From assembly GCA_003599755.1 (NCBI GenBank), contig QZJO01000009.1:150362-214361 (forward strand): a stretch of DNA of 64,000 nucleotides, given 5' to 3'. The notes below the pieces were generated by a model. It did not search any database and had not been told where the DNA came from. It was given only the letters and a program-made list of their open reading frames with translations. The translations under genes were made by a program, and so were the position numbers. Below are positions 9,067 to 57,348 of the stretch, in pieces; the first letter of the stretch is position 1; each line of letters begins with the position of its first letter. Origin of the DNA: Candidatus Parcubacteria bacterium. GTDB lineage: Bacteria; Patescibacteriota; Minisyncoccia; Sungbacterales; SURF-37.

Positions 9067-11018
9067 GATAGCCGCCAGACGCGCCAGGCATCCGGTGATT
9101 CCGCATCACTATAGACCGGCTCGGCACCGAGCCGCAACAGGCAATCCGGATCGCTCCGCATGGGCTCGACGCCCGGCCGCGCGACTACGTAGGCGATGCC
9201 GAGGCGGCGCAGACCATTGGGATCGCATGCGGACTGAAATGCCTCGTATGCGGCCAGCTCTTCCGCGTAGCCCCAGCCGACGATGAACGGGCCGGGCGCG
9301 AAGCGTCCAGTCTCGCGGATGAATTCCTCGCTGAACGGATAGAACCGGTCGGTATGCGCCGAGTTGCCCCGTACCCACGCATAAAGACGCGCCGCTTCGG
9401 GTACCGGCGCGTCGGGTATGCCGAGAAACGGCCGGGAAAAATCGCCGACGAATCCGAGCGGCGTCAACGTATAGATAACGAGAAACGCCAGCGCGGTTCC
9501 GCCCATGGCGAACGCCGCGACGCCGACCGCGGCCGTCCGCCAGGAAAACCGCCGCCACGCGCCGGATCGCTCAACGATTTCGGCGAGCAACATGCCGGCA
9601 AGAAACGAAAAGAGTTGGGTCGAAAACGCGAAGAACCGTTCCATTTCCCGCGGGCGGGTTTCGTAGCGAACCGCCAGCGGTACAAGAAACGCGATGGCCG
9701 GGATCATAGCTATGAACAGGGCCCTCGGATTACCGCGGAAGCGCCATGCCGCGAACGGAAACAGCGCGAGCGGCAGGCCGAACTCAAGAAAGAATGACGG
9801 ACGAAACGGCAACACGCCCTTGTCCGTAATTTCGGTATTCCAAAAATCCTCCACGAATGCGAATGCTTGCGGTTCCTCGGATTGTCCGAGCGTGGAGAGA
9901 ATCCCGCCCTGCCAAAACGCCATCGCGGTACCCACACCGAGTATGATTGCCGTGACGGCAATCGCGCGCCCCGGCGTCCCGGGTATCGCGCGCGCGAACC
10001 GAGTAGGCCAGATGCGGCCGAGCGGCCCGGCGGCGATCCCCGCGGCGACAAATGCCGCAAACAGTACGGCAACATGCGTCTCGAGCGCGAGCGCAGCGTA
10101 GCCGTACGCGATGCCTGCCACAAGCGCGAACGCGAACCAGCGCGTACCGGTCGCGAGCGCGCGCAGATAGGCGTAGAGAGCCACGAGCAGTACTGGCAAT
10201 CCGAGCGCCGTGGTGTGATTGGATGCCATCACGAAGCTCGAATCGAACCGCGGCGTTGTCATGGCCGCCAAAAACGCCCATGGCGCATCGCGCGCCTCGC
10301 CGAGTATGAATGTCTGCCAAAGGCCGACTATGCCGGGGACCACCGCGAGCCAAGCGAGTCCTCCGCCGATGCCGAAAAATACCGCGCCCCATACCGCCGC
10401 GTGCGTACCGAAGCCGAGCTCGCGCGCGAGCGCAAACGCCATGAGCAATCCGGCAAAAACGAAGAGGAACGTCTGCAGATCGTAACCGATCCACAGCGGC
10501 GTACCGGCTACGCGGGAAAATATCGCAGAGAGCATTTCGGGCGCGTAGTGGTACGCGACCGGATGATCGGGCGCGGACGGATCCGACACCGGCAGATTGC
10601 CTTCAGCGATCGTAGCTGCGAGCGGCAGATGGCCGAGCTTCACGTCTGAATCCTGCAACGTGCGGAGCGCGACAATACCGGCCAGCGCCGCGATGCCAAG
10701 CGCGATGCCGAACAGCACGAAGGCCTCGTGCCGCGAAATATCGCCGCGCTCAAGCGATGCCGCCTGCCGCGCGGCAAGCCATTGCCAGCCGAACGCGGCT
10801 GAAAGCGCCATGAGGCCGAGTATGAGCCAAACCGCGGCGTCGAACGGGAGGAAAAATCCCGCAGCGTTGACCGCCGCGCCGAGCGTTCCGAACCCGGCAA
10901 TGATCGCTATCGGCGCAACGGCCCAGACGCGCCGCTCGCCCAATATACCCACGGCAACAAGGCCGCCGAACGCGGCCGCGACCCCGAGCAGTCCGATAAA
11001 GAAAATAATGCTGAGCAT
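9057..11018 (-). CDS. Polytopic integral membrane protein with ~200-aa C-terminal soluble domain (possible glycan polymerase/GT-C-like; family unclear)
   Basis: At least 12 hydrophobic segments then a non-hydrophobic tail; architecture resembles the 40413-42131 protein. Confidence 0.45.
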   Translation of the reverse strand: MLSIIFFIGLLGVAAAFGGLVAVGILGERRVWAVAPIAIIAGFGTLGAAVNAAGFFLPFDAAVWLILGLMALSAAFGWQWLAARQAASLERGDISRHEAFVLFGIALGIAALAGIVALRTLQDSDVKLGHLPLAATIAEGNLPVSDPSAPDHPVAYHYAPEMLSAIFSRVAGTPLWIGYDLQTFLFVFAGLLMAFALARELGFGTHAAVWGAVFFGIGGGLAWLAVVPGIVGLWQTFILGEARDAPWAFLAAMTTPRFDSSFVMASNHTTALGLPVLLVALYAYLRALATGTRWFAFALVAGIAYGYAALALETHVAVLFAAFVAAGIAAGPLGRIWPTRFARAIPGTPGRAIAVTAIILGVGTAMAFWQGGILSTLGQSEEPQAFAFVEDFWNTEITDKGVLPFRPSFFLEFGLPLALFPFAAWRFRGNPRALFIAMIPAIAFLVPLAVRYETRPREMERFFAFSTQLFSFLAGMLLAEIVERSGAWRRFSWRTAAVGVAAFAMGGTALAFLVIYTLTPLGFVGDFSRPFLGIPDAPVPEAARLYAWVRGNSAHTDRFYPFSEEFIRETGRFAPGPFIVGWGYAEELAAYEAFQSACDPNGLRRLGIAYVVARPGVEPMRSDPDCLLRLGAEPVYSDAESPDAWRVWRLSWN

Positions 11019-11024
11019 ACGCTG

Positions 11025-12905
11025 CTATCGCCCCCTCCCGAGCCACCGCCGATGCCATAGCAAGAACACCATCAACGTCCAAAGCTGCTTGCGGTTGTCC
11101 CGCCGGCGGGCGCGATGGTCATCGAGCAGCCGCTGGACTTCAGCCGCGTCGAACAGGCCGACGGACGCAACCGAGCGAGGCGACAAAAGATCCGTCGCAA
11201 ATTCTCGAAGTTCGCCGTTCAGCCAGCGCGTCAACGGGATGCCGAAACCCTTTTTCGGCCGATCCGCGATGCCTGCCGGCAGTCGGGACCGCATGAGCGC
11301 CTTCAAAATGTATTTGGTCGTAAGGCCCCGGCATTTCCAATGGTACGGCAGCCGGTGCGCAAACTCCACGACGCGGTAATCGAGAAACGGCGCGCGCACT
11401 TCAAGGGCTGAACGCATGCTCGCGCGATCCACTTTCACGAGCACGCCATCCATCAGATACGCGCGCAGATATTCATACAGCACTCGCTGCATCGGGTCGG
11501 CATGCGCAAGCTCGGCGCGCCAGCGGTCCACGTCGTCGAATTCGTTTTCGGCCGCGAGCGCGCGCCACGCATCCGGCCGGAACAGGCGCGCGCGCTCGTC
11601 GCGATCGAACGCGGCAAGCCACCGCGCGTGACGATAGCGTTCCGGTCCGCGAAGCCCGCGCAGAAATCGCGTCGCCTTGAATCCGAAGCTGAAATTGGTG
11701 TCGCGCACCGGCAGGCGCGACACCCAGGACTCGGCTAATCCGCGCACCGCAGCGGGCAGCCGGCGTACGAACGCCGCGAGTCGTTCCGCGGGGAACGTCG
11801 GATAGCCGGCGAAAAGTTCGTCGCTGCCGTCGCCGCCGAGCGCGACGGTCACGCGGCGGCGGGCAAACTTCGCGAGCAAAGCGCTGGGCAACAGCGACGC
11901 GTCGGCCAACGGCTCATCGGCAAGATCGGCAATTTCCGGCACAAGCTTCAGTACGTCGCCGGCAACGAACGCCGTCTCATGGTGCGTGGTTCCGAGATAT
12001 TCGGCTACGCGCCGCGCATACGGCGCCTCGTCAAAACTCTCCTCGTGGAAGGAGATCGAAAACGTCTCGACCGGCGTACGACTCGCCTGGACCGCGTAGT
12101 AGGCCACGGTCGAGCTGTCCAGGCCTCCGGAGAGCAGCACGCCGACCGGCACGTCGGCCGCGAGGCGCGGAGTCACGCTTGCCGCGAGCAAACGATCGAG
12201 CTCGACCGTCGCATGCGCGAGGCCGATCGGCTCGGCCGGCGCATCCGGAAGGCGCCAATACGCGCCGGTGCGCTTCACGCCGTCCTTCCAGACCAGATAT
12301 GATGCCGGCGACAACTTTTGGATATGCTTGAAGATCGTCCGCGGGGCGGGAACGTATTCGTATGCGAGATACTTGTTGAGCGCGACCAGATCCAATTCGC
12401 GCGTCACCGCCGGATGCGCTACGAGCGCTTTCAATTCGGAACCGAATACCAGCGTATTGCCGAACGCGCCCCAGAAAAGCGGCTTTTTGCCGAAGCGATC
12501 GCGCGCGAGCGTAAGTTCGCCGGTCTTGGTGTCGAAGAGCGCGAGTGCGAACATGCCATTCAGCCGGGCGAATGCGCCGGTGCCGAATTCGTCCCAGAGC
12601 GCCAGAATGACCTCGGTGTCTGATTCCGAACGGAATGTTCGCCCGCGCGCGGCAAGTTCGGCGCGCAGTTCCCGGAAATTATAGATTTCGCCGTTAAACG
12701 TGATCCAAACCGTCCGGTCGGCGTTCGGCATGGGTTGGTGTCCGGCCGGGCTCAGGTCGAAAATCGCGAGGCGCGCGTGCGCAAGCCCCGCGCCCTCTCC
12801 CGTCCAAATACCGCCGCCGTCCGGTCCGCGGTACCGAATGGCGCCGATCATTTGTTCCAGATCATCCCGCCCGCCCGCACCGACGAATCCCGCGATGCCG
12901 CACAT
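11025..12905 (-). CDS. Asparagine synthetase (glutamine-hydrolysing) family amidotransferase, AsnB/WbpS/PseA-like
   Basis: Start at MCGIAGF (N-terminal nucleophile Cys2), RGPDGGG, SGGLDSS PP-loop motif; the upstream in-frame 56-codon extension is judged non-coding. Confidence 0.8.
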   Translation of the reverse strand: MCGIAGFVGAGGRDDLEQMIGAIRYRGPDGGGIWTGEGAGLAHARLAIFDLSPAGHQPMPNADRTVWITFNGEIYNFRELRAELAARGRTFRSESDTEVILALWDEFGTGAFARLNGMFALALFDTKTGELTLARDRFGKKPLFWGAFGNTLVFGSELKALVAHPAVTRELDLVALNKYLAYEYVPAPRTIFKHIQKLSPASYLVWKDGVKRTGAYWRLPDAPAEPIGLAHATVELDRLLAASVTPRLAADVPVGVLLSGGLDSSTVAYYAVQASRTPVETFSISFHEESFDEAPYARRVAEYLGTTHHETAFVAGDVLKLVPEIADLADEPLADASLLPSALLAKFARRRVTVALGGDGSDELFAGYPTFPAERLAAFVRRLPAAVRGLAESWVSRLPVRDTNFSFGFKATRFLRGLRGPERYRHARWLAAFDRDERARLFRPDAWRALAAENEFDDVDRWRAELAHADPMQRVLYEYLRAYLMDGVLVKVDRASMRSALEVRAPFLDYRVVEFAHRLPYHWKCRGLTTKYILKALMRSRLPAGIADRPKKGFGIPLTRWLNGELREFATDLLSPRSVASVGLFDAAEVQRLLDDHRARRRDNRKQLWTLMVFLLWHRRWLGRGR

Positions 12906-12909
12906 GGCA

Positions 12910-13875
12910 TTAGGGCGCGCTTCGCTCGTGCACGCTCTCGACGACATAAAACGGCTTCTGAGTCGCGGCGTATTGCGTGCGGATGAGCATCTCGGCGAAC
13001 AATCCCATAAGAATGAACTGCACGCCGATGATGGCGAACAGGACCGCGACCGCCGGCAGCGGCGTGGCCACAAACGATTTTCCCTCGCCGTACTTCAGCC
13101 AGACCATAACGGCGAAGGTCAAAGCGCTTGCCGCCAAACTCCAGAAGCCAAACCAGCCGAAGAAATGCATCGGCCGCGAACGGAATCTCCGAAAAAAATA
13201 ATGCGCGAACACGTCGAGTACGACCTTGAAGGTCCGGGAAAAGCCGTATTTGGACGTACCGAACTGCCGCGGCGAAAATCGAATCGGCACCTCGGCGATG
13301 CGCCCGCCGGCATGCACGGCCATCATGCGGTGCATGTCGCCAATGAACGCGAGCGATACGATCCGATCGCGGCGGTAGACCTTCAGCGGACAGCCGTGAT
13401 CATGCAGCCGAACGCCGCTGACCCATGAAATAAGCGTATTGGCGAGCATCGAGGGAATGCGCCGCGTGAACAGATGATCCCGCCAGCGATCGCGGCGCCA
13501 GCCCGATACCACGTCGTATCCTTCGGCAAACTTTTCCAGAAGCGATGGAATATCATCCGGATCGTTCTCCAGATCGCCGTCAAGCGTCACGATAATGCGA
13601 CCGCGCGAAGCATGGATGCCGGCCGCGAGCGCGGCGGTCTGGCCATAGTTCTCGCGCAAGCGAATGAAATGGAGCGGCGCGCATCGTTCGGCCGCGGCGG
13701 CCGTTCCATCGGTCGAGCCGTCGTCGACGAAAATAAGCTCCCAGGTCATCGGCATGCGCCCGAGCGCTTTGCACAGGCGCGCATGCAGCCGCGGCAGCGA
13801 TTCTTCTTCATTGAAAAACGGTACCACGACCGAAAGGTCGAGTCGCGCGATTGCATTGGCATCGGAATTCGGCAT
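12910..13875 (-). CDS. Glycosyltransferase family 2, Dpm1/ArnC/GtrB-like polyprenyl-phosphate glycosyltransferase with two C-terminal TM helices
   Basis: LSVVVPFFNEE, FVDDGSTDGT, VTLDGDLENDP motifs; hydrophobic C-terminus. Confidence 0.8.
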   Translation of the reverse strand: MPNSDANAIARLDLSVVVPFFNEEESLPRLHARLCKALGRMPMTWELIFVDDGSTDGTAAAAERCAPLHFIRLRENYGQTAALAAGIHASRGRIIVTLDGDLENDPDDIPSLLEKFAEGYDVVSGWRRDRWRDHLFTRRIPSMLANTLISWVSGVRLHDHGCPLKVYRRDRIVSLAFIGDMHRMMAVHAGGRIAEVPIRFSPRQFGTSKYGFSRTFKVVLDVFAHYFFRRFRSRPMHFFGWFGFWSLAASALTFAVMVWLKYGEGKSFVATPLPAVAVLFAIIGVQFILMGLFAEMLIRTQYAATQKPFYVVESVHERSAP

Positions 13876-13880
13876 GGAGC

Positions 13881-14942
13881 TTAGTGCACGTGGGACTCCA
13901 GAATTTGCTCGTCGGCTTCGATCATGACGCGGGCGGTCTTTCCGACGATTCGGTCGGCCATCGCCGGCGCCAATCCGCCTTTGCCCGGCCGTTTGAACGC
14001 GATCATATCCCGCGTAATAGCCATACCCGCCGCGATATCCCTGCGCGCCACGATAGCCTGGCTCGCCCAGTTGCGGCCGGTCTCGAGTCGCCGCAGCCGC
14101 TCTGCATCCGGCACCGGCCGCAAAGCCGCTTCCACATCGCGGATCTGGCGCACCATGAGCTTGAACTCCGCGGGCAAAAGCGCCCCCGGGTTATCGAGCG
14201 AACGCGGATCGTCCTTATCAAAGGTAAGGTGTTTTTCGACGACGCATGCGCCGAGCGCCACGGCAGCAAGGACAACCTGCCAGCCCACCGAATGATCCGA
14301 GATGCCGACCGGCAGGCCCGTCAATTCGCCGATGCGCCGCATCCGCGTAAGGTCGATTGCATCGTACGGCGTGGGATACAGCGTCGTACAATGCAGCGCG
14401 ATCATCGGCCCCGCGCCCGCCTGGCTGAGTGTGTCGATCGCGCGCACGACCTCGTCATCCGACTGTAAGCCGAACGATATCATGATGGGCTTTTTCGCCG
14501 CGCCGACCCGCTTGAGAAAATCTATGTTGCCCGCCTCCCCGGACCCGATCTTCAGAAACGGCGGATCGAATTCGCGGAGCAAAAGATCCAAACTCTCTTC
14601 CTCATGCGCCGTTGCGAAAAACGGGTAGCCCGCCGTGCGCGCGTAACGCGCGAGATCGGCGAGCGCCTCGAGTGATAGTTCCTTGTATTTCACGCGTTCG
14701 AACCAATCGAAGCCAAGCTCCGGCGCAAGGCGCTTGGCGACTTTCCTGCTGATTAATGCCTCGGTGTTCGTCACCTGAAACTTCACGATATCCGCACGCG
14801 CGGCCGCTGCGGCATCTACCTGGCGTTTGGCGAGTTCCAGATCTCCATAATTGGTAACGCCGCCTTCGCAAATAACGAAAACGGGTTGGCCGGGGCTGAT
14901 AATCCGACTGCCGGCGCGAAATGGCGGCTGGGATTGATTCAT
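13881..14942 (-). CDS. N-acetylneuraminate synthase family (NeuB/LegI/PseI-like) with C-terminal SAF domain, copy 2
   Basis: VFVICEGGVTNYGD motif, SAF-like C-terminus (IVARRDIAAGMAI...); start chosen at the ATG giving ATGA overlap with the upstream gene (alternative ATG at 14963). Confidence 0.8.
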   Translation of the reverse strand: MNQSQPPFRAGSRIISPGQPVFVICEGGVTNYGDLELAKRQVDAAAAARADIVKFQVTNTEALISRKVAKRLAPELGFDWFERVKYKELSLEALADLARYARTAGYPFFATAHEEESLDLLLREFDPPFLKIGSGEAGNIDFLKRVGAAKKPIMISFGLQSDDEVVRAIDTLSQAGAGPMIALHCTTLYPTPYDAIDLTRMRRIGELTGLPVGISDHSVGWQVVLAAVALGACVVEKHLTFDKDDPRSLDNPGALLPAEFKLMVRQIRDVEAALRPVPDAERLRRLETGRNWASQAIVARRDIAAGMAITRDMIAFKRPGKGGLAPAMADRIVGKTARVMIEADEQILESHVH

Positions 14943-15901
14943 AGCGGATGTCGGCGGCACCATTGCACGGTAAGCTCGGCGATATGAAGCATCGATTTTT
15001 CCGTGGCTTCTCTCGTAGCGCCGCCCAGATGCGGGACGATAATCATATTCTCATGAGTCCGGGCATAGTCAACCAGCGGATGCGTTTTGACGTGCGCGCC
15101 ATCGGGCGTCTCGCCGGCCAGCGTATCCACTGCCGCACCGGCAATGCGCTTGGCCTTGAGTGCAGCCAAGAGCGCGGATTCGTCCGCGATCTCGCCCCGC
15201 GCGGTATTGATGAACACTGCCGTCGGTTTCATCAGGCGGAAATGCCGGGCACCGAGCATACCGGCAGTTCTATCGCTGTACACGCAATGCACCGAAACGA
15301 CATCGGCGGCGCGCAACAGCGCGTTAAGCCCAGCGCGGCGCGCGCCGCCGCGAGCCATTGCGCTTGCCGAAACATACGGATCATAGGCGATCACGCGCAT
15401 GCCGAACGCGCGCGCATAGCGCGCGACATACGAACCGAGCCGCCCGAAGCCGATGACGCCGAAGGTCTTGCCGGCGAGCTCATGGCCACCGTACCGGCGC
15501 CGTTCCCAGCGCCCCGCCTCCAGCGAGCGCATGGCCCAGGGAATATTGCGCACGAGCGCGAGTACGAGCGCGAACGTCTCTTCGGCCGTGGACGGAATTT
15601 GGCGCAATACCGGGGAGTCGCCTTTGATATGCACGACAGCGATCCCCCGCCGCGCGGTTTCAGCGCGGTCGATGTGCCGCAGCTGTGTGGTGCGCGAGGC
15701 GACAAGCTCGAGGCGCGGCGCGCGATCCAGCACGGCTTTGGTGAAATTCACCTCCAGCCCTGCGACCACGACATGCGCGCGCGGCAAATTTTTAAAAAAC
15801 ACCGAGCGGCTGCCGAACGGAATAACGCGGCCGACGCGCGCCAGCATACGCATTGCCTGCGGGCTGAATTCCCGTTCTGCGATAAGGATAACGCGCTTCA
15901 T
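14939..15901 (-). CDS. D-isomer-specific 2-hydroxyacid dehydrogenase (NAD-binding; glycerate/phosphoglycerate dehydrogenase-like)
   Basis: GVIGFGRLGSYVARYARAFGMRV Rossmann motif; FINTARGEIADESAL; catalytic H in VPHLGG. Confidence 0.75.
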   Translation of the reverse strand: MKRVILIAEREFSPQAMRMLARVGRVIPFGSRSVFFKNLPRAHVVVAGLEVNFTKAVLDRAPRLELVASRTTQLRHIDRAETARRGIAVVHIKGDSPVLRQIPSTAEETFALVLALVRNIPWAMRSLEAGRWERRRYGGHELAGKTFGVIGFGRLGSYVARYARAFGMRVIAYDPYVSASAMARGGARRAGLNALLRAADVVSVHCVYSDRTAGMLGARHFRLMKPTAVFINTARGEIADESALLAALKAKRIAGAAVDTLAGETPDGAHVKTHPLVDYARTHENMIIVPHLGGATREATEKSMLHIAELTVQWCRRHPL

Positions 15902-16629
15902 ACGAGCCCTGCCCGAATTATGCATTCGGCGAGCGCCAAGTCGTTCGGCGTATTAATATCGAACGCGCCGAGCTCATCGATACCGAGACCGACGCGCCGA
16001 CCGACTTCAAGGCCGTGTTCTCGGAAAAATGCGTCGCGCCTGAACCAGTAGCAGTTGCCGAACGCATAGCGCCTGGGGTCCGATTGGCGCGTCGGATGGG
16101 CATAATGCATTTCGGGCTGATCGAATTCCAAAAATCCCTTATCAGTCATGCGGCGCACATGATAGGGATGGAAAATGCGCGGCACCTCGATACAGGTAAT
16201 GCCCGAATCGGCGCCCTTGGTCGTTACGAGTTCGAATAGCCGATCGATATGGTCCGACCGGATGAACGGTTCCGTGGGCTGAGCGAGCAACACGTATTCG
16301 GGTGCGTAGTGCTCATGCTCTTCAAGCCACCGGAGCGCATGATCCACGACGGGAATCATCGGCGTAGAATCCTCGGCCAATGCGGCAGGACGCACATACG
16401 GCGTCTCGGCGCCGTATTGGCGCGCAATCGCGGCGATCTCCTCGTTATCGGTATCGACGATCACCCGCCGTACTGAGTGCGCATGGTGTATTGCCGCCAA
16501 AACATACGCAAGCAACGGTTTACCGGCGAGGGGATGAATATTCTTTTTCGGAATCATTTTCGATCCCCCGCGTGCGGGAATGATCGCCAACGTTTCCTGC
16601 GGCTCGTCTCTGGTCACAGTCATGGTCAT
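15898..16629 (-). CDS. Acylneuraminate cytidylyltransferase family (CMP-nonulosonate synthetase), copy 2
   Basis: IIPARGGSKMIPKKNI motif; 243 aa. Confidence 0.8.
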   Translation of the reverse strand: MTMTVTRDEPQETLAIIPARGGSKMIPKKNIHPLAGKPLLAYVLAAIHHAHSVRRVIVDTDNEEIAAIARQYGAETPYVRPAALAEDSTPMIPVVDHALRWLEEHEHYAPEYVLLAQPTEPFIRSDHIDRLFELVTTKGADSGITCIEVPRIFHPYHVRRMTDKGFLEFDQPEMHYAHPTRQSDPRRYAFGNCYWFRRDAFFREHGLEVGRRVGLGIDELGAFDINTPNDLALAECIIRAGLV

Positions 16630-16695: not shown

Positions 16696-17883
16696 CTATA
16701 GCGATCGCGTCTGGCGCCACTGCACCGTCGGCATGATCGCCTCGCGGTTGATGGCTTCCTTGGCTTCGCTCACCCGCCGCAGGAGCGACTGCACCAGTTC
16801 ATCCGACAACGCGGTCGGCGTGAGCCCGAGACGCAGGAGGTGGTCGTTGCGCGGGTTGTAGTAGTGGTCTTCTGCTTCGACCCGCGGGTTCTCGATCCGG
16901 CGGATCGTCGCATCCCATCCGAGTATGCGAGCCGCGTCGCAGACGGCCTTGGCAAGCTCGAATACGGAAAAGACCTCGGTGAACTGATTGAACACCCGGA
17001 ATTCGCCTGCCGCGGGAGGGTTCATGGAGGCGAGCTCAACGCACTGAATGGTGTCGCGGATGTTGAGGAACCCGCGCTTCTGATTCCCTCCTCCGTACAC
17101 GGTGATCGGATGGCCGGTCGCCGCCTGCACGACGAAGCGGTTCAGCGCCGTTCCGAACACGTGATCGTAGTGGAAACTCGTCACGAGCCGCTCGTTCATG
17201 TCCGTCTCGGGAGTAGAGATGCCGTAGACGACTCCCTGGTTCAGATCGGTCGCCCGCAACTTCCAGATCCGGCAGGCGAAGGAAATGTTCCCCGAGTCGT
17301 GAACTTTGGACCAGTGGTACCAGGATCCTGCCTGCTTCGGAAACGGAAGGGTGTCCTTCCGCCCCCGATGTTCGATCTCGATGAAGCCCTCCTCGATGTC
17401 GATGTTCGGGGTTCCGTACTCACCCATGGTCCCGAGCTTCACGAGGTGCGCGTGCGGCACCACCTCCTGCATGGCGTACAGCACATTCAGGGTTCCGATG
17501 ACGTTGTTCCGCTGCGTGAACGTCGCGCGGCGATGATCGATCATCGAGTACGGCGCCGACGGCTGTTCGGCGTAGTGGATGATCGTCTCGGGCCGGAACT
17601 CCTGAAAGACGTCCTTCAGAAACTCGAAATCGCCCGCGATGTCGCCCAGAGAGCTTCGGATCCGGAGACCCGAGCACTCGCGCCAGGCGGCGAGTCGCTG
17701 CCGCAACGATGGAATCGGGAACAGCGGCATGGCGCCGACTTCCTCCTCCCACCGCCGCTTGGCCATGTTGTCTACGATCGCGACGTCATGCCCCTTGGCC
17801 GAGAAGTGCAGCGCCGTGGGCCAGCCAAGATACCCATCGCCGCCAAGAACCAGGATCCGGAGTGGGCGGAAGTCGATCCGCAT
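16696..17883 (-). CDS. UDP-sulfoquinovose synthase (SQD1/SqdB)-like extended SDR
   Basis: Diagnostic N-terminus RILVLGGDGYLGWPTALHFSAKGHDVAIVDNMAKRRWEEEVG matches the SQD1 signature (GGDGYCGWATAL...IVDNLVRR); strong SD AAGGAGG 4 nt before the ATG. Confidence 0.7.
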   Translation of the reverse strand: MRIDFRPLRILVLGGDGYLGWPTALHFSAKGHDVAIVDNMAKRRWEEEVGAMPLFPIPSLRQRLAAWRECSGLRIRSSLGDIAGDFEFLKDVFQEFRPETIIHYAEQPSAPYSMIDHRRATFTQRNNVIGTLNVLYAMQEVVPHAHLVKLGTMGEYGTPNIDIEEGFIEIEHRGRKDTLPFPKQAGSWYHWSKVHDSGNISFACRIWKLRATDLNQGVVYGISTPETDMNERLVTSFHYDHVFGTALNRFVVQAATGHPITVYGGGNQKRGFLNIRDTIQCVELASMNPPAAGEFRVFNQFTEVFSVFELAKAVCDAARILGWDATIRRIENPRVEAEDHYYNPRNDHLLRLGLTPTALSDELVQSLLRRVSEAKEAINREAIMPTVQWRQTRSL

Positions 17884-18003: not shown

Positions 18004-19170
18004 CTAGCGCCCGATGACGAGGCGCTTGCGAAAGAGCGTTTCGTTGAGCTCGAGCGCTTTGACGATCTCGAGCACCCTGTTGCTCGCGCGCCCGTCACCG
18101 TAGCGCCGGCCGCAGGAGGCGAGCGCGGCGCGGAAACCCGGATCGCGACCGACGAACTCGATCGCCTCGCGAATAGCCGGTACCGCCAGAGGAACGTCGC
18201 GAACATTCGCTTCCCGATCGCGTCCTTGCTGGCGCGCACCGATGTTCAAAGCGGGGAGACGGAAATACGGCGCCTCTACGAACGCTGCCGACGAATTCCC
18301 GAGCATCACCTCGGCGCCGGCCATCAGACCGAGAAAATCGAAATTCTCGATGTTCGGAAACAGCCGGAACCGCGGATGCCCTCGCCGCTGCTCCAGAACC
18401 TCGATGATTTCGTCATAGCCGGGATCCGAACACGGGTATACGGCGATCCACGTGTGGCCGCTCGCGATCGCCGCCGCACACACCCGTTCCGCGACTTCGC
18501 GGTTCTCCGATGCTCCGAGGAACGTATCGGGATGCAGGATGAGGATACCGTAGCGCTCGCCCGGGCCGATGCCGTAGCGCCCGGCCGCTTCGCCGGGCGG
18601 CGTATACATCTGGCGCAAGATACGATCGATGTAGAGCGAACCGACGGCGTGCACCCGCCATGATTCTTCACCGAGCGCCCGAATGCGGGAGGCCGCTTCT
18701 TCGGTCTCCGCGAAATGCACATGGGCGAGCTTCGTGATCGCGTGGCGCTGGATGTCGTCGATGTTGCCCGACACCTCGCCGCCCTGGGTATGCGTCACCG
18801 CAATACCGAGGGTTACTGCGGCAAGCGCCACGATGAGATGCTCCGCGCGATCGGCATGCACCATGACGATATCGGGCCGCTCGCGTTCGAGCAGGCGCGC
18901 GGCCTCGCTCATGCAGCGGCCGAGGTTTTCTGCCCGCACAAGCGCACTGCCTCCGCGTCCGGCCCCCATCTCGATGCGATGTATGGCGCGCGCGGGAAAA
19001 AGATTTTCTGCCTCCCGTACCGTCGCCCCGAACTCGGCGGCCAGATGCATGTCGCCGAGCAGGATCATGAGCTCGAGATCAGGATCGGCTTCGATCGCAC
19101 GCATGAGCGGTACATACGCGCCGAAGCCGCCGCGCTTTCCCGAAAAGGCGCAAATTTTTTTTGGCTTCAC
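18004..19170 (-). CDS. UDP-N-acetylglucosamine 2-epimerase family (NeuC/LegG/WecB-like)
   Basis: Epimerase_2-like layout, HTQGGEVSG motif; GTG start at 19168-19170 preceded by SD AGGGAGG. Confidence 0.7.
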   Translation of the reverse strand: MKPKKICAFSGKRGGFGAYVPLMRAIEADPDLELMILLGDMHLAAEFGATVREAENLFPARAIHRIEMGAGRGGSALVRAENLGRCMSEAARLLERERPDIVMVHADRAEHLIVALAAVTLGIAVTHTQGGEVSGNIDDIQRHAITKLAHVHFAETEEAASRIRALGEESWRVHAVGSLYIDRILRQMYTPPGEAAGRYGIGPGERYGILILHPDTFLGASENREVAERVCAAAIASGHTWIAVYPCSDPGYDEIIEVLEQRRGHPRFRLFPNIENFDFLGLMAGAEVMLGNSSAAFVEAPYFRLPALNIGARQQGRDREANVRDVPLAVPAIREAIEFVGRDPGFRAALASCGRRYGDGRASNRVLEIVKALELNETLFRKRLVIGR

Positions 19171-19244: not shown

Positions 19245-20285
19245 TCAATGCTCTTGAACATAGATGTGTCGTGACAGCCGCAACGGCGGCGCGATCGCCG
19301 TCGGCGCGCCTCCTTCGACCCGAAACAGCGCTCGCCTGCCGCCCGGCGCATCATTCGCATCAATGCGCGCCAACAAGAGTGGTTCGGTCAACGATCGATT
19401 GAAGGCCCGCTCCATGGTAAATCCAATCTTCATGCCGGCCGCGCGCGCCGCATCGGCGACTGCGACATTCACCTGACTCGCCGTGCCATACGGATAGGAG
19501 ATGCTTCTGACGGCCTCGGGCCTGATTCCGGCCGCGCGCGCGACGGCATCGCGGCATATCCGGATATCCGCTGCGGCGTCATCCGGCTTCAGCAGTCCGA
19601 GCGGTCGATGCCGATAACCATGGATACCGAGGTATCCGCGCGCGGCTAGATCCTTAAGCCCCTCTTCCGATATGTACCACGCGCGGACGAATCCCGTATC
19701 GTCGCCGTGATGTTCCGTAAAAACATCGGCAACCAGACGTTCCTCAAGCTCTTGGCCCAAGACGCCTTTGGTAAGGACGTATTTCACGCGCGCATCTTCG
19801 AGCGCGTCATATGCGTATTGCGCGCGGACCATCGCGTCGGCAATGCCGAGCGATGCGAGGTCGAACGGCATCCCCGTTATCCGCGTATATGCCGTTCCGA
19901 TCTGCTCAAGCAATTCCGCGGGGGGCATATGCGCGCGGAGCCAATGAACCATATGGATATGGAGCGGTCGCTTCTCGGCATACGGCAATCCATTCGCGAA
20001 AAACAGGGCTGGGATGCCGAGCGCATCGAGTATTGGCAACGCAATCGCATATTGGTCCGCGAGGCCGTCATCAAACGTGATGACGCAGGCGCGTTCGGGA
20101 AGCGGTTGGTCTCCCGCGAGCGCCGCGAGGATATCGGCCTGGCCTACGAATGCGAATGCGCGCGCCAGTTCCTCAAGCTGGCGGCGAAACACGGCGGCGG
20201 AGATCGCATAGATCGCCGGATGCGGGTACGCCGCCTCGCCGATGTAATGATAATTGACGGCAAGTAACTGCATACCCGGTGGCAC
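19245..20285 (-). CDS. Polysaccharide deacetylase (NodB/CE4 homology domain)
   Basis: VITFDDGLADQY NodB motif 1. Confidence 0.65.
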   Translation of the reverse strand: MPPGMQLLAVNYHYIGEAAYPHPAIYAISAAVFRRQLEELARAFAFVGQADILAALAGDQPLPERACVITFDDGLADQYAIALPILDALGIPALFFANGLPYAEKRPLHIHMVHWLRAHMPPAELLEQIGTAYTRITGMPFDLASLGIADAMVRAQYAYDALEDARVKYVLTKGVLGQELEERLVADVFTEHHGDDTGFVRAWYISEEGLKDLAARGYLGIHGYRHRPLGLLKPDDAAADIRICRDAVARAAGIRPEAVRSISYPYGTASQVNVAVADAARAAGMKIGFTMERAFNRSLTEPLLLARIDANDAPGGRRALFRVEGGAPTAIAPPLRLSRHIYVQEH

Positions 20286-20397: not shown

Positions 20398-21198
20398 TCA
20401 CGCGACGATGGGAAACCGCGCGTCGCGCCGGGCGCGGTCCGCAAGATACGCCGGGATCATGCCCTGGGCGAATCGCTCGCGCATGCGGCGGATAGCATCG
20501 GCGTTGAAATCGCGGTTGCGGAATAGTTTTCCGCCGCCTGGTTGCTGCAAAACGGGCAGCACGGACCCGGCGGCATAGTCCGCAAGCGTAGCCGCGAGCG
20601 TTCGCGCACCCGCCTCGATCGTGCGGCAGCCGATGGTATGACAGTCATCATCCGGACCCATCGCTGGCCGCACTTGCCGGAGAATCGGACCGGCATCCAC
20701 GCGCGCGCTGGCAAGATGAATCGTCGCGCCTACGCATTCGGGCTCGCCCTCGACGAGCGGCCAGAAGTTGGTCGCCGTGCCGCGATAGTATGGAGAGAGG
20801 CCGAGATGGATATTCACGACGCGGTCGGGAAACGCGTTCAGAAGCCGATCCTGAATAATGCTCGATCCGAAGAGCACCACGTACGTCGGCCGACGCTCTT
20901 GAATCCAGGCAAACGCGGCATCGCTGTTCGCTTCGCCGTGCGCAAGCGCCACCGTATGTTCGGCAGCAACCGGAAAGGATTGCGCCTGACCGAAAAACCG
21001 CTGCTCCGCCGCGGCGAATCCCTCAACGTGCTCGCGCATCAACGGATCGGATTCGGGCGCGGGCGCGGCACCGGCGCGCTTCCCTTCCGCGATCACGCCC
21101 GCAAGATCGCAAACGGCGGCCAGCGCGTACGCGAGAAACCGATGCCGCGGCTTGGTGCTGGTAATCAGTACGAGTGATGGACGAGTTGGCGCCCTCAT
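20398..21198 (-). CDS. Formyltransferase (Formyl_trans_N; sugar N-formyltransferase/Fmt-like)
   Basis: VLFGSSIIQDRLLNAFPDRVVNIHLGLSPYYRG (N10-formyl-THF binding HxSLLPxxxG-type motif); start taken at the internal ATG giving ATGA overlap (ORF extends to 21270). Confidence 0.7.
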   Translation of the reverse strand: MRAPTRPSLVLITSTKPRHRFLAYALAAVCDLAGVIAEGKRAGAAPAPESDPLMREHVEGFAAAEQRFFGQAQSFPVAAEHTVALAHGEANSDAAFAWIQERRPTYVVLFGSSIIQDRLLNAFPDRVVNIHLGLSPYYRGTATNFWPLVEGEPECVGATIHLASARVDAGPILRQVRPAMGPDDDCHTIGCRTIEAGARTLAATLADYAAGSVLPVLQQPGGGKLFRNRDFNADAIRRMRERFAQGMIPAYLADRARRDARFPIVA

Positions 21199-21959
21199 GC
21201 GTCGCGTTTTGTGCATGCGTATAATATATCGGTGCCGAACCAAGCGCGGAATCGCTCCCGTCCGAACCAAACGCGTTGAGCCCCCGCGACTTTGAGCCAG
21301 CCGAAGCGGCTCTGACGTAGTTTTGCGATATCTAGCGTATATTCGCGCGCGCGAATGCGGAACGCAGGCGAGAATATCTTCTCGACAAGCGCCGGAGTAA
21401 AAATAGCGATGTGGTTATTCTTCGTCGAGTAGCGTTCGAGCTCGCCGCTGCGCAGAAAATTCTTCCTACTGAGCAGTGAAGCGACGTTCGGCATAGACCA
21501 AAAGAATATGCCTCCGGGTTTCAACACGCGCGCGACTTCGCGGACGAAGTGAAACGGGTTTTCCAGATGCGGCAGCACGCACCATGCAGTAACGAGATCA
21601 AACGATGCATCCGGCCATGGCAGCGGATCGCTCGAAAGATCGGCAGTTTGAAAATCGCGAATCAGGCCGCGCTCGCGGATTTCCGACGCACGATAGTCGT
21701 CGATGTCCACGGCGGCGATCGTGCGGATGCCGATGCGTCCCAGTTCCTCTGCGAAGTAACCGCTTGCGGTTCCGCAATCGAGAGCGTGAAGCTCTGAAAA
21801 CAAGGGAAGCTCCGACCGCCACCGCTCAATAAATGCCGCACCAATCCCGGCTGCGTCGCCGAAATGCCCCTCGAGCGCCGCGCGGGCTTTCGCGGCGGCA
21901 GGGCCGCGGATTTCGGCCGCGGTCAAATACGGAAGCGTAATTCTGTCTTTCTTAGGCAT
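21195..21959 (-). CDS. Class I SAM-dependent methyltransferase
   Basis: LDCGTASGYFAEELG motif I, VLKPGGIFFWSMP; start at MPKKDRITL (ATG 21957-21959); the long upstream in-frame extension is judged non-coding. Confidence 0.7.
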   Translation of the reverse strand: MPKKDRITLPYLTAAEIRGPAAAKARAALEGHFGDAAGIGAAFIERWRSELPLFSELHALDCGTASGYFAEELGRIGIRTIAAVDIDDYRASEIRERGLIRDFQTADLSSDPLPWPDASFDLVTAWCVLPHLENPFHFVREVARVLKPGGIFFWSMPNVASLLSRKNFLRSGELERYSTKNNHIAIFTPALVEKIFSPAFRIRAREYTLDIAKLRQSRFGWLKVAGAQRVWFGRERFRAWFGTDILYACTKRDA

Positions 21960-23310
21960 GCGTGCGTATGCCGATATGCTCGAGAAGCGCGTCGGCCACG
22001 CGCTCGGATGCCTTTCCATCTGGGTCGCTGCCGTATTGTTCGCGGATGATACGCCGCCGGCCCTCGCGGTCGAGCGTCGGATCGGCCAGATACCGCCGAA
22101 TCCAGGCACGAAACTCGTCGGCGGTATCGGCGCGCGCAACACCCCCGCTTTCCAAAATAGCGCGGAAATGAATATACCCGTACGGCCGTACGCCTTCAAA
22201 GCCGGTCTTGGGCGTGCGGTGGAAATTGGCGATGATCGTCGGTTTGTCGAACAAAGCCGCCTCAATAGCGATCGTTGAGGGGCCCGTCACCACGAGATTC
22301 GCATGCCAGATGCCATTGACCAGCATCGCGTCGTCTTCGGGTGTAAGATCCCGATCGCCCACCCGGTTCGGGTCATAGGTAACGCCGGGGCGGTCAAAAT
22401 ACATATGCGGCGGCGGGACAAACCCCTCAAGGCCGCTTACGCGGTCTGCGGGCGGAAACCGCACGATGACATTCGCATCGAGCTCGGCCAGAATATCCAT
22501 CGCATAGCGGTCGACATCATTTTCGCGAATATAAAGGTCTCCTATGGGTGCGAAAAAAATCAGCGGCTTTGCGGGATCGGCGTTGATGCGCCTGAAAAAT
22601 TCTTCGCGCGGAATTTTCAGCCCTTTCAGATACTGATCATAGTGCGGAATACCGACCACGCGAATGCGCTCGGCCGGCATGCCGTCCAGTTCGATCGCCT
22701 CGCGCCGCAATCGCTCGCTCCATACGAGCAGCTCATCGGGAAAGATGCGCAATAAGCTATGGATGGTAAGGTTGTCCCAGGATCGCACCATGCCGATCGT
22801 CGGAATGCCGCGGCGCCGGGCATCATGCATGAGCGCGATATCGTTTTCGTTCAATATGTCCGTGGCAAACACTAAATCCGGGCGCATCCGATCGAGCAGA
22901 TCCCCGAACAGTTCGCGGGGCCCGAGCACGCGATCAAGCCACCGAACGATTCGCGGCGCGGCCTTGGTCCGGCCGATCGCTTGCGAACCGTAATAGAGCG
23001 CTCGATACCACCACGGCTTGCCCAGGTACATGAGGTATTCTTCACGAATCCGAATGCTTTCGGTCGCAAGCATCAAACGCGCAAGACGCTTGCAGAACAG
23101 TCCGCGGCGCGTGCGCGTCGGCCTGCTTGCGACAACGCCGACGATTTCGACATCCTGCCGGGCGAACCGATCCGTAAAGTAGGATACTTTATAATCCGGC
23201 ACAACGACGACGATCCGATGTCCTGCCGCGAGCAGGCGCGGAATGATATCGGTCGCGATGATGTTTCGGGAAATGAGGAGGTGGAAGCTCGTTATGAAGA
23301 TCGTTTTCAT
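21952..23310 (-). CDS. TagF/TagB-family (Glyphos_transf)-like protein, paralog 3
   Basis: VVGIPHYDQY, IFFAPIGD, TIAIEAALFDKPTIIANF; start MKTIFITSF chosen (ATGA overlap). Confidence 0.55.
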   Translation of the reverse strand: MKTIFITSFHLLISRNIIATDIIPRLLAAGHRIVVVVPDYKVSYFTDRFARQDVEIVGVVASRPTRTRRGLFCKRLARLMLATESIRIREEYLMYLGKPWWYRALYYGSQAIGRTKAAPRIVRWLDRVLGPRELFGDLLDRMRPDLVFATDILNENDIALMHDARRRGIPTIGMVRSWDNLTIHSLLRIFPDELLVWSERLRREAIELDGMPAERIRVVGIPHYDQYLKGLKIPREEFFRRINADPAKPLIFFAPIGDLYIRENDVDRYAMDILAELDANVIVRFPPADRVSGLEGFVPPPHMYFDRPGVTYDPNRVGDRDLTPEDDAMLVNGIWHANLVVTGPSTIAIEAALFDKPTIIANFHRTPKTGFEGVRPYGYIHFRAILESGGVARADTADEFRAWIRRYLADPTLDREGRRRIIREQYGSDPDGKASERVADALLEHIGIRTHA

Positions 23311-24683
23311 TCGTTCTTGTTCATGACGGCTAGGCGGCTTCGCGCGCCAAGAATCTTCGCGAGCCGCGCGCTCGCGCCCCCGTCCAGCCGCCAGGCCTCT
23401 TGGGTTACGATGCGTGCCCTGCCGGCGCGATCGAGCTCCGGATCGCTGCAATACCGTCCAATCCATTTCCGAAGCTCTTCAGGGCTTTCAGCAAAGCGGA
23501 TGCCGCCGGCGGCGCGCAATGAAGCAAAATGATCGTAATCGTAGTAACGCCGAATGCTCTCATAGTAGGGACGGTTCGGGGTCGGGTCAAAGGCGATCGC
23601 TATCGCCGGCGTATCGTAGACCGCGGCGTCGATGAGAATCGTTGAGGGGCCGCCAACCACGACTTCCGCAAATGCGAGCGAATCGCGCAGCACCTCATCG
23701 TCCTCCAGCGTCAATTCGTTGTGCTTGAATCCTTTGCCCGTCCCCAGCTGCCGCCCGGGCCGGTGCACGAGCGCGGCGGGCGGCAGATCGGCCGCGATGC
23801 GCATGCTATCGCTCGGCGGAAGCCGCACCACGATCCGCCATCCCGCAGGCAGCGCATCCGCCAACAGCCGGATGACGAATCCGTCCAGATCGTTTTGGCC
23901 CAAATACCGATCCCCGGTCGGCGCGTAGAGCACGAACCGCTCGTCCGGCCGAAGGCCGAGACGCGCGGCGAAATCAGCGCGCGCATGCGGCGGCGCGCCG
24001 CCGTACCGGTCATAATGCGGGATGCCGATGACCTGAAGCGCCCCGCGCGGAATGCCATGGTACCGCGCCGCTTCTTCCGCGACGAGCTCGTTATTGACGA
24101 CAAGCGTGTCCGGAATCGTACGGACGAGACCTTTCGCCGTCAGATTGTCCCAGGAACGCACCATACCGATCGTCGGCACGCCCGCATCGCGCGCCGCCTC
24201 GATAAGACGTGCATCGGCATCCTGTTGGACATCGGTTGCGAACACCGCATCCGGCCGATACGCGCGCACAATAGCGCCGAATGGCTCGCGCGGCGCGAGC
24301 CAGCGGCTTACCTGCCGGATCAACGCCTGCGCCCAGCGCCGGTTACCGATCAGACGGACGAGCAGCGCGCCGCGGCCGCCCAATTCGGTCTTGCGCTTAA
24401 TCGCCAGCGAATGGGTATCCGTCGCCGCGAGCGCGAGATAGCGCAGCGCGGCCTCAAACCGCGTTGATGCGAACGCGACCGGATGGATAATAAGGCCGGG
24501 TCGCAAAAATTCCGAAAGAAAAAACAATTGCTTCTCTACAGGAACCAGCAGAACGACGCGCGTCGCGCCATCGGCAAGCAACGCATCCAGAAGCGGCGAC
24601 GATATGATGTTACGAGAAATAAGGACGTGAAAACTCGTCATGAGTATCGTCCTCGGTCGAACGGTCGGTGGTTGGCTAGTCAT
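23307..24683 (-). CDS. TagF/TagB-family (Glyphos_transf)-like protein, paralog 4
   Basis: VIGIPHYDRY, FVLYAPTGDRY, TILIDAAVYDTPAIAIAF. Confidence 0.55.
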   Translation of the reverse strand: MTSQPPTVRPRTILMTSFHVLISRNIISSPLLDALLADGATRVVLLVPVEKQLFFLSEFLRPGLIIHPVAFASTRFEAALRYLALAATDTHSLAIKRKTELGGRGALLVRLIGNRRWAQALIRQVSRWLAPREPFGAIVRAYRPDAVFATDVQQDADARLIEAARDAGVPTIGMVRSWDNLTAKGLVRTIPDTLVVNNELVAEEAARYHGIPRGALQVIGIPHYDRYGGAPPHARADFAARLGLRPDERFVLYAPTGDRYLGQNDLDGFVIRLLADALPAGWRIVVRLPPSDSMRIAADLPPAALVHRPGRQLGTGKGFKHNELTLEDDEVLRDSLAFAEVVVGGPSTILIDAAVYDTPAIAIAFDPTPNRPYYESIRRYYDYDHFASLRAAGGIRFAESPEELRKWIGRYCSDPELDRAGRARIVTQEAWRLDGGASARLAKILGARSRLAVMNKNE

Positions 24684-24781
24684 GGGAAACGAGCGGAATG
24701 CGGATCCGCTCATTTATAATACGGCTTCCCTGCCTGCCCTGTTTCCTCCCCGTGCCTGTCGCGCTCGGAACTCTTTGTACG

Positions 24782-26053
24782 TTACTCTCGCCGTTCCGGG
24801 TCCGCAGTGAGCGGCGCTCCCTTGAGCACATGCTCAAAGATCGCAAGCTCGCGATCAGCATATTTTTCCCAGGTAAACGTCCGGCGCACGAATTCGGCCG
24901 CATATGCGCTGATGCGCTCGTAGCGCGCCGGGTCATCCACGAGCGCGCGCACTGAGCGCGCGATATCGGCCGGATCCATGGCATTGGCCAATAGGCCGTT
25001 TTTTTCTTCGTCAATAATTTCGTGGATGCCGGCACCTCGCGAAACGACCGGCACGAGGCCGCAGGCCATGGCTTCGGTCGGCGCGAGGCCGTCGGATTGC
25101 ATGGTATGCGGATAGAGAAAAATATCTGCCTCGTGGTACCGCTCGATCAATTCTTTTTCGGAAATGCGCTTGAGAAAAATCACGCGCTCGGCCAGCTTGA
25201 GCTCGTCCACGAGCTTGAATAGGCGCGCCGCATACTCGGGATCCCCTGCCGGATCGCCGATGATGCGCAGGATCGCATCATAGCCCTGATCGGCGAGAAT
25301 CCTGGTCGCGCGAATTGCGTCCTCGAACCGGCGGTGCGGAAAAAATATGCCGCTAGTCAGCAAGTTTACTTTTTTATCCTTGGGCGCGGTGCGCGGCTTG
25401 TACGTGAACTGCGCGAGATTCGGGCCGTTGCGGGCCACGAACGCTTCACGGCCAAAGTAATCGCGCACCGCTTTCTGGTTGAATTTATCCACGACCACGA
25501 TTGCATCAAGCGGCCGGATGAACCGCCAATTCTCGTACGCGTCACGCATGCGATAGATCCATTGTTTCAAGAGCGGCTGGACATAGCGGTCCGGATCCAC
25601 GGCCGCAAGTTTGTCGACCAGATGCCGCATAGAATGTGTGTCGTTCGTATTCCAGACCGCGGGCACGCGCCGGGTGACCCGCGCGCGGAAAAACTTCACT
25701 GCGCGATGCGCGACGCGGTCATGCACGTTCAAGAGATCAACGTCGGGCTTAATAAGCTTTGCCATCGCTCTGGCCGAGCGTGTTTCGTGGCCCATGGTGA
25801 GCAATGTCGCGGCATAGCGGCCGAGCGGAATTGAGCGCAGCGTTTTATATTCCGGATCACGCGCCTGTTGAGGATCGAGCGCGATCACGTCGAATCCTTC
25901 CAGTAAGTCCGGGTAACACGCTTCTTTGGAATAAAAAAACGGATAGATGGTCACCTCGTGTCCCCGCGCGCGAAATTGATTCGCGAGATACAAAAACAGC
26001 CGCTGCGTGCCGCCTTTCACGTCCAGGCGGCGGATGACCATGGCGATCTTCAT
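24782..26053 (-). CDS. Glycosyltransferase family 4 (GT-B, Glycos_transf_1)
   Basis: N-terminal glycine-rich RRLDVKGGTQR, C-terminal E-x7-E-like PTEAMACGLVPV. Confidence 0.8.
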   Translation of the reverse strand: MKIAMVIRRLDVKGGTQRLFLYLANQFRARGHEVTIYPFFYSKEACYPDLLEGFDVIALDPQQARDPEYKTLRSIPLGRYAATLLTMGHETRSARAMAKLIKPDVDLLNVHDRVAHRAVKFFRARVTRRVPAVWNTNDTHSMRHLVDKLAAVDPDRYVQPLLKQWIYRMRDAYENWRFIRPLDAIVVVDKFNQKAVRDYFGREAFVARNGPNLAQFTYKPRTAPKDKKVNLLTSGIFFPHRRFEDAIRATRILADQGYDAILRIIGDPAGDPEYAARLFKLVDELKLAERVIFLKRISEKELIERYHEADIFLYPHTMQSDGLAPTEAMACGLVPVVSRGAGIHEIIDEEKNGLLANAMDPADIARSVRALVDDPARYERISAYAAEFVRRTFTWEKYADRELAIFEHVLKGAPLTADPERRE

Positions 26054-48425: not shown

Positions 48426-48476
48426 GGCCGTTCTCTCTACCGTACTGCTCGGACCAGCGCCCGCCAAGAAATAGTT

Positions 48477-48506
48477 GTCCCCGCCTACTCTCGGGCAGGC
48501 GGGGAC
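48477..48506 (-). terminator. Candidate intrinsic terminator after ORF 48511-48936
   Basis: Perfect 10-bp stem GTCCCCGCCT/AGGCGGGGAC followed on the minus strand by AACUAUUUCUU. Confidence 0.45.
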
Positions 48507-48510
48507 GAGC

Positions 48511-57297: not shown

Positions 57298-57348
57298 TTC
57301 CTCCCTTAGGAAGAAATCTATTCATAGCGACTGATTCACTGATTAGCG

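Follow-up and report, generated by a model that had tools for sequence, protein, structure and literature searches.

The 64,000-nucleotide window analysed here (64 kb of the 263,839-bp contig QZJO01000009.1 of Candidatus Parcubacteria bacterium, assembly GCA_003599755.1, positions 150,362 to 214,361) contains four paralogous genes, named A to D, which lie in two tandem pairs within a glycan locus (Table 1). On balance, we take the four encoded proteins to be glycosyltransferases built on the TagB/TagF scaffold that depend on cytidine monophosphate (CMP)-nonulosonate. They would be peripheral transferases of the glycosyltransferase-B (GT-B) fold in the TagB/SpsB/TagF superfamily, each with its own acceptor or linkage for the nonulosonic acid residue that it adds. 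CMP-nonulosonate is suggested as the donor by the gene context together with the altered catalytic residues, and the resulting surface glycan would be linked to lipid or protein.

As shown in Table 1, a single minus-strand glycan locus occupies ∼0.3–48.7 kb of the window. The paralog pairs flank two NeuB-family synthases, two PseF-like cytidylyltransferases and one NeuC. These genes form two nonulosonic acid sets, one composed of NeuB-like and PseF-like genes and the other of NeuC, PseF-like, NeuB-like and 2-hydroxyacid dehydrogenase genes. B and A are located at the downstream edge of the nonulosonic acid block, directly after cytidylyltransferase 1. D and C are located at its upstream edge and are followed by methyltransferase, formyltransferase and deacetylase genes in overlapping frames. 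The four paralogs belong to four old subfamilies, which may differ in the acceptor or linkage that they specify for the two nonulosonic acids of the locus. One donor would carry a pseudaminic acid (Pse)-like sugar made by the PseF-like/NeuB-like set adjoining B and A, and the other a neuraminic or legionaminic acid (Neu/Leg)-like sugar made by the NeuC/NeuB/cytidylyltransferase set adjoining D and C. The methyltransferase, formyltransferase and deacetylase encoded downstream of C could modify the transferred sugar.

Related loci were found with a 16-sequence alignment, and the comparison set comprised 186 family members in 78 species-representative loci. Subfamilies were defined as average-linkage clusters of the family members. 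A NeuB or CMP-synthetase homologue was present within 10 kb in 28 of the 40 long related loci and in 44 of the 78 overall. The linkage differed between subfamilies. It was found for 29 of the 45 members of subfamily 11 (containing D), 17 of the 36 of subfamily 12 (C), 24 of the 32 of subfamily 6 (A) and 3 of the 4 of subfamily 4 (B), which merges with subfamily 3 at a looser cut. It was also high in subfamilies 3/4 taken together and in the small subfamilies 7, 9 and 10, and low in subfamilies 5 (4/19) and 14 (3/13). This subfamily-specific linkage is an internal control. Contig look-ups showed a nearby NeuB and/or cytidylyltransferase gene in loci L003 and L004 and none in L001. The association of the family with NeuB or CMP-synthetase genes recurs in four phyla.

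When 72,556 plasmids were searched by tblastn with paralog C, only 55 records were matched. One encoded a Rhizobium protein and the rest encoded SpsB-like proteins of the Bacillus cereus group. The Rhizobium protein scored 174 bits against the family hidden Markov model, and carried SWD and RCHP motifs; its gene directly followed a neuB-family gene, neuC and an acylneuraminate cytidylyltransferase gene. In the two Bacillus records inspected, a pseC/pseG/pseH/pseI operon came directly after the gene of the SpsB-like protein. On the plasmid of Rhizobium sp. WL3 (L091:536-3318), two further hypothetical proteins of ∼450–475 amino acids (aa) are encoded just upstream of the neuB-family gene; one of them scores 15 bits against the family profile, and both may be distant paralogs. 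A literature search on nonulosonic acids in Patescibacteria and on proven TagB-like Pse or Leg transferases found nothing beyond PMC5420450 and PMC7439481.

Judged from sequence comparison, membership of the four proteins in the TagB/TagF (PF04464) GT-B superfamily is established, because hhalign against eight TagF-family proteins, taken from plasmid records, gave a probability of 99.5% (E 1.9e-22) and the family profile matched TarL. B and D scored above the gathering threshold of PF04464 (Glyphos_transf, 22.1 bits), A fell just below it and C gave no match. The NCBIfam model BFO_1060 (NF046086), whose cut-off is 200 bits, was reached by none of the four (C 55.4, B 55.0, A 40.2 and D 16.6 bits); it was the top curated match for B and C (E ∼5e-15). 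A search of solved structures with a 79-sequence family profile matched only TagF-like enzymes, namely TarL (E 5.6e-8, residues 209–446, which make up the whole C-terminal domain) and Cps3D (E 2.6e-4). Single-sequence searches of solved structures gave only a chance-level match for C and none for B. The AlphaFold (AF2) model of C, built from a 54-sequence alignment, had a predicted local distance difference test score of 94.5 and adopted a GT-B fold whose N-terminal domain contains a five-helix insertion. The figures listed with this model were 24.6 for a NeuC-type 2-epimerase (5zlr), 20.6 for TarL, 19.7 for TagF and 15.6 for polysialyltransferase. The label "TagF-like" in the original prediction thus stands at the superfamily level, for the GT-B fold and the TarL-like cytidine-nucleotide domain, but does not extend to the catalytic histidines, which are mostly absent.

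Two invariant histidines are essential in TagB, TagF and TarL (PMC10901376). In TarL, H300, which is stacked on W299, acts as the base, while the alpha-phosphate is contacted by H433 and the cytidine pocket is shaped by P395 (PMC10901376). The TagF counterparts of the two histidines are H444 and H584. HMMER and hhalign alignments agreed in placing K431-M432-H433-P434 of TarL over R284-F285-P286-P287 of C. At the position of H433, C and D carry Pro, A carries Gln and only B carries His; by subfamily, the residue is Pro in 11 and 12, Gln in 6, Tyr in 5 and 14, and His in 3 and 4. The Arg two residues upstream of it (R284 in C) is invariant across subfamilies. In TagF-family proteins, the loop after the fifth strand of the N-terminal domain reads (I/V)Q-x-W-H-G. 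In the equivalent loop, C and D read VRSWDN, A reads INSWDK and B reads NINHDN, and W-D is near-invariant there in every subfamily. No His corresponds to the first TagF histidine in A, C or D in either candidate register. B keeps one of the TagF/TarL histidines and also carries a GxxRxD motif, while A, C and D keep neither histidine. The cytidine-pocket Pro (P395 of TarL) and the ribose-binding acidic residue (D/E350) are conserved. We read this pattern as a conserved nucleotide-binding half in which the residues that bear the chemistry appear to have changed.

The near-invariant Asp of S-W-D (D179 in C) may serve as the catalytic base in place of the TagF histidine, which would parallel the Asp/Glu base of GT-B sialyltransferases. 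The invariant Arg (R284 in C) could take over phosphate binding. Tandem partners may act in succession on one glycan, as suggested by their translational coupling and by relatives that hold two family domains in a single chain.

The original prediction of a second tandem pair, giving four copies in total, was borne out: two adjacent minus-strand open reading frames (ORFs), C and D, were confirmed, with A and B as the first pair. Its span of 21952–24683 does hold two genes, but 24683 is the second Met of D, whose ORF starts at 24713. The motifs named for the pair were found in C (VVGIPHYDQY and FDKPTIIANF) and in D (VIGIPHYDRY and YDTPAIAIAF), and the distance between the pairs, put at ∼18 kb within one locus, was measured as 17.9 kb. 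The listed ORF of C covers 21952–23466. Its true start was set at the ATG at 23310 (MKTIFITSF...), because the homologues and the identical NCBI protein begin there. The latter is hypothetical protein C4552_02860 of Candidatus Parcubacteria bacterium, identical to C over the full length. The stop of D and the start of C share an ATGA overlap, as do the stop of B and the start of A. The start of B lies 4 nt inside the stop of cytidylyltransferase 1, again in an ATGA overlap. Both B+A and D+C are translationally coupled pairs on the same strand.

Near-identity of the copies, named in the original prediction as the sign of an artefact, was not seen. BLASTP identities were 38% (C-D), 33% (A-D), 32% (B-C), 31% (A-C), 30% (B-D) and 28% (A-B), with E-values from 1e-27 to 1e-81. 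At the DNA level, C and D shared only motif-sized matches of at most 47 nt, and a single longer match, 118 nt at 70% identity, was found between the pairs. No long DNA matches exist, and therefore an assembly artefact, a recent duplication and gene conversion between the pairs were rejected. Duplication followed by divergence, also proposed originally, holds insofar as the four are real paralogs, but the divergence did not take place inside this locus and is ancient and clade-wide. This is because, depending on the paralog, 29–163 family members from other Patescibacteria genomes are closer to it than is any of the other three copies, and because the four fall in separate subfamilies.

Related loci came nearly all from Patescibacteria (Paceibacterota, Giovannoni-, Sung-, Taylor- and Harrisonbacteria). 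Two to four family genes within 10 kb were usual among the 78 loci, and tandems were often translationally coupled. The paired arrangement is normal for Patescibacteria and no peculiarity of this locus. The commonest tandem was subfamily 11 followed by subfamily 6 (n = 16). The D-to-C order was seen again in L022 and the B-to-A order in L030, where the orthologues of A and B showed 59% and 65% identity. A profile search of 1.84 billion representative proteins gave 2,075 clusters at E ≤ 1e-30; the family thus exceeds 2,000 clusters at 50% identity, almost exclusively in Patescibacteria. Fusions of a family domain to a CMP-synthetase or NeuB were sought, and only double-domain, methyltransferase and deacetylase fusions were found. 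Double-domain chains were 897–944 aa long. Two family domains are joined in one chain in P0121 and P0126, a family domain is fused to an S-adenosylmethionine (SAM) methyltransferase in P0124 and L041:2-1744, and to a polysaccharide deacetylase in P0234. The methyltransferase and deacetylase partners match the types of gene downstream of C. L004:13160-15907 was also listed among the double-domain or fused relatives.

A three-gene array of subfamilies 12, 14 and 5 was conserved in L012, L014, L016, L019, L028 and L032, and NeuB or cytidylyltransferase genes were usually lacking within 10 kb of it. In subfamilies 5 and 14, Tyr stands at the position of the second TagF histidine, and the donor may be a different one.

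Teichoic acid pathways typically employ sets of several paralogs, and Patescibacteria are thought to have a Gram-positive-like envelope. Both points would suit true TagF-like phosphotransferases, modelled on TarB/TarF/TarK/TarL, that transfer polyol phosphate or sugar phosphate from a cytidine diphosphate (CDP) donor and so assemble a teichoic-acid-like polymer through a series of priming and polymerising reactions. The superfamily homology, the conserved cytidine pocket, and the HP histidine and GxxRxD motif of B are consistent with such enzymes, and phosphotransfer chemistry is most plausible for B, which resembles TagF more than the other three do. Nevertheless, we consider phosphotransfer by the four proteins unlikely. 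A, C and D lack the two histidines whose essential role has been demonstrated (PMC10901376), and the N-terminal acceptor-side domain gave no sequence-level alignment to TagF. No CDP-glycerol or CDP-ribitol gene (tagD, tarI/tarJ) was found in the 64-kb window of the 264-kb contig, although such genes could lie elsewhere in the genome; the other nucleotidyltransferase in the window (38772–39455) resembles generic sugar-1-phosphate enzymes. TagD-like genes occurred in only 2 of the 78 related loci and TarI-like genes in none, as searched with approximate probe sequences. The phosphotransfer reading is weak because the histidines are lost, a CDP-polyol gene is missing from the window and the context is CMP-nonulosonic acid synthesis. 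The four distinct phosphotransfer steps originally proposed are doubtful on the same grounds.

That the paralogs are ordinary GT-B glycosyltransferases using uridine, guanosine or deoxythymidine diphosphate (UDP-, GDP- or dTDP-) sugars, placed beside nonulosonic acid genes simply through clustering of the genes for one glycan, would agree with the generic GT-B matches of the fold searches (GT1 and GT4 families, PimA, MurG), with the weak Glyco_transf_4 match of C (27.3 bits) and with the several nucleoside diphosphate (NDP)-sugar enzymes encoded in the locus. There is also a precedent for misleading adjacency in B. subtilis SpsB, which is not needed for Leg transfer (PMC7439481). We regard this explanation as quite improbable, since, among proteins of solved structure, only cytidine-nucleotide enzymes (TarL, Cps3D) are significantly related in sequence, conventional glycosyltransferases are already encoded by at least nine genes of the locus (seven GT4, two GT2), and the link to NeuB and CMP-synthetase genes is confined to certain subfamilies and recurs across phyla. 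The paralogs share a fold resemblance with GT-B epimerases and hydrolases of nucleotide sugars, such as NeuC or WecB. Such a non-transferase role is very improbable for them: the Epimerase_2 (PF02350), NeuC and WecB models gave no match in A–D, the locus has its own bona fide NeuC, and the sequence homology points to TagF/TarL.

CMP-nonulosonate-dependent glycosyl transfer, the reading favoured here, also has observations that weigh against it. The SpsB precedent shows that adjacency to nonulosonic acid genes can mislead, and Bacillus SpsB-type proteins retain the TagF histidines. No NeuB or CMP-synthetase gene was found within 10 kb in 12 of the 40 long related loci. The BFO_1060 match lies far below the cut-off and covers mainly residues 138–254. 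The [DE][DE]G sialyltransferase motif is absent from A–D, and HP occurs at the relevant site only in B (IRIHPND). Finally, the alignments disagree on the register of D179 relative to the TagF catalytic histidine. Global and local hhalign both place W-H on A164-R165, inside a predicted helix, a placement that we judged unreliable; MAFFT with Bacillus SpsB-type proteins placed QHG on SWD, one residue off.

Table 1. Features of the glycan locus and its surroundings, in window coordinates.
Feature	Coordinates	Strand	Remarks
Paralog A	1313-2671	minus	452 aa, subfamily 6; INSWDK, GIPQYD, VRFQP; PF04464 21.9 bits
Paralog B	2668-4032	minus	454 aa, subfamily 4; NINHDN, GCLRFD, IRIHPND; PF04464 33.0 bits
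CMP-nonulosonate synthetase (cytidylyltransferase) 1, PseF-like	4029-4760	minus	PF02348; TIGR03584 157 bits against cut-off of 205.7; directly upstream of B
400-aa soluble ORF	4948-6150	minus	between cytidylyltransferase 1 and NeuB-family synthase 1
NeuB-family nonulosonate synthase 1	6229-7200	minus	PF03102 7e-43; NeuB and PseI models below cut-offs
Large ORF, 12 hydrophobic segments	9057-11018	minus	no Pfam/NCBIfam match
Asparagine-synthase-type glutamine amidotransferase	11025-13073	minus	same gene follows family array in L001 and L003
NeuB-family nonulosonate synthase 2, SAF domain	13881-14963	minus	TIGR03569 256 bits, below cut-off
D-2-hydroxyacid/phosphoglycerate-dehydrogenase-like enzyme	14939-15925	minus	between synthase 2 and synthetase 2
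CMP-nonulosonate synthetase (cytidylyltransferase) 2, PseF-like	15898-16629	minus	PseF model 140 bits
UDP-sulfoquinovose synthase-like	16696-17883	minus	479 bits against cut-off of 575; between NeuC and cytidylyltransferase 2
NeuC-type hydrolysing UDP-N-acetylglucosamine 2-epimerase	18004-19170	minus	TIGR03568 302.7 bits, above cut-off of 235.9
Polysaccharide deacetylase	19245-20285	minus	domain also fused to family member in P0234
Formyltransferase	20398-21198	minus	ORF to 21270; likely start 21198 or 21216
SAM methyltransferase	21195-21959	minus	ORF to 22265; likely start 21959, 8-nt overlap with end of C
Paralog C	21952-23310	minus	452 aa, subfamily 12; VRSWDN, GIPHYD, VRFPP, TGPST
Paralog D	23307-24713	minus	468 aa, subfamily 11; alternative start 24683; PF04464 24.5 bits
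GT4 glycosyltransferase	24782-26053	minus	directly upstream of D; GT4 likewise upstream of L001 array
GT2 fused to PMT_2 domain	35181-37649
Large ORF, 10 hydrophobic segments	40413-42131	minus	no Pfam/NCBIfam match
Surface protein, lamin-tail and PKD domains	46878-48689	minus	603 aa; heads locus
PMT_2 protein	48945-50681

Besides the genes considered above, the locus encodes a Wzx-like flippase and PMT_2-type and unclassified polytopic membrane proteins. The two large hydrophobic ORFs (Table 1) might encode a glycan polymerase, a ligase or a GT-C-type transferase. The 400-aa soluble ORF gave no Pfam, NCBIfam or PDB sequence match; by its position, it may encode a PseG-like hydrolase or another (GT-B) transferase. 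The UDP-sulfoquinovose synthase-like gene may point to a 6-deoxy sugar in the Parcubacteria glycan that is sulfonated or unusual in some other way. The lamin-tail/PKD protein could be a surface protein that receives the glycan; a protein of this type followed by GT4 genes also heads L001 (L001:1-328). Just outside the locus, peptidoglycan-binding-domain proteins, one of 1,245 aa, are encoded at 50675–51931 (plus strand) and 53588–57325 (minus strand). Beyond them are genes for a Nudix protein, a DeoR-type regulator, ClpB and an HtrA-like protease. The G+C content is ∼56–65% throughout the window, with no compositional break at either paralog pair. Values of 56–65% are high for a Parcubacteria genome.

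We raise as a tentative possibility that a large, hitherto unrecognised Patescibacteria clade of the TagF superfamily has replaced histidine-based phosphotransfer with Asp-based glycosyl transfer from CMP-nonulosonates, its coupled pairs and arrays building nonulosonate-rich glycans. If so, such glycans, possibly polymeric, and sialic-acid-like coats would be common in these ultrasmall episymbionts. The database label "CDP-glycerol glycerophosphotransferase" would then be systematically wrong for the family; several members are named "CDP-glycerol glycerophosphotransferase family protein" in public records, and systematic mis-annotation is probable. Few transferases are known for pseudaminic, legionaminic and related acids. 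For the TagB-like candidates, the basis is a single genetic study in Tannerella forsythia and a single negative finding from B. subtilis. The family is under-studied, and its altered catalytic centre and linkage to nonulosonic acid genes make it a source of many testable candidates. It suggests a route by which a phosphotransferase scaffold may be re-used for glycosyl transfer. For Patescibacteria, it points to elaborate acidic surface glycans that could shape host attachment.

Among known systems, the T. forsythia proteins Tanf_01245 and TFUB4_00887, the founding members of BFO_1060 (NF046086), are transferases for Pse/Leg derivatives. Knock-outs showed that the O-glycan of T. forsythia receives its terminal nonulosonic acid only if TagB-like proteins encoded beside the Pse/Leg locus are present (PMC5420450). 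Like the window proteins, these are TagB-like GT-B proteins of ∼445 aa encoded beside CMP-Pse/Leg biosynthesis genes, and the proposed donor is likewise a CMP-nonulosonate. In contrast, the D/E-D/E-G and HP motifs reported for them are absent from A, C and D, and the window proteins form a Patescibacteria-centred family of their own. TagF, TarL and TagB (3L7I, 8VA1) share with the window proteins the GT-B fold and a homologous C-terminal cytidine-nucleotide domain, in which the motifs GxPxxD, (Y/F)AP, a TDYSS-like loop and DKP line up. A helical insertion in the N-terminal domain and multi-paralog gene sets are further likenesses to TagF and TarL. The differences are that W-H has become W-D, that H-P has become P-P or Q-P in A, C and D, and that the window proteins have neither the N-terminal polymerase-type extra domain nor CDP-polyol genes nearby. 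The Bacillus SpsB-type proteins (TagB/SpsB, COG1887), of ∼467 aa, also adjoin nonulosonic acid operons but keep the TagF-type QHG and PHP histidines. With the GT-B sialyltransferases of families GT38, GT52 and GT80, the window proteins have no detectable sequence similarity and no D/E-D/E-G motif in common; what they share is the GT-B fold, the HP motif in the case of B and, as proposed here, a CMP-sugar donor and an acidic base.

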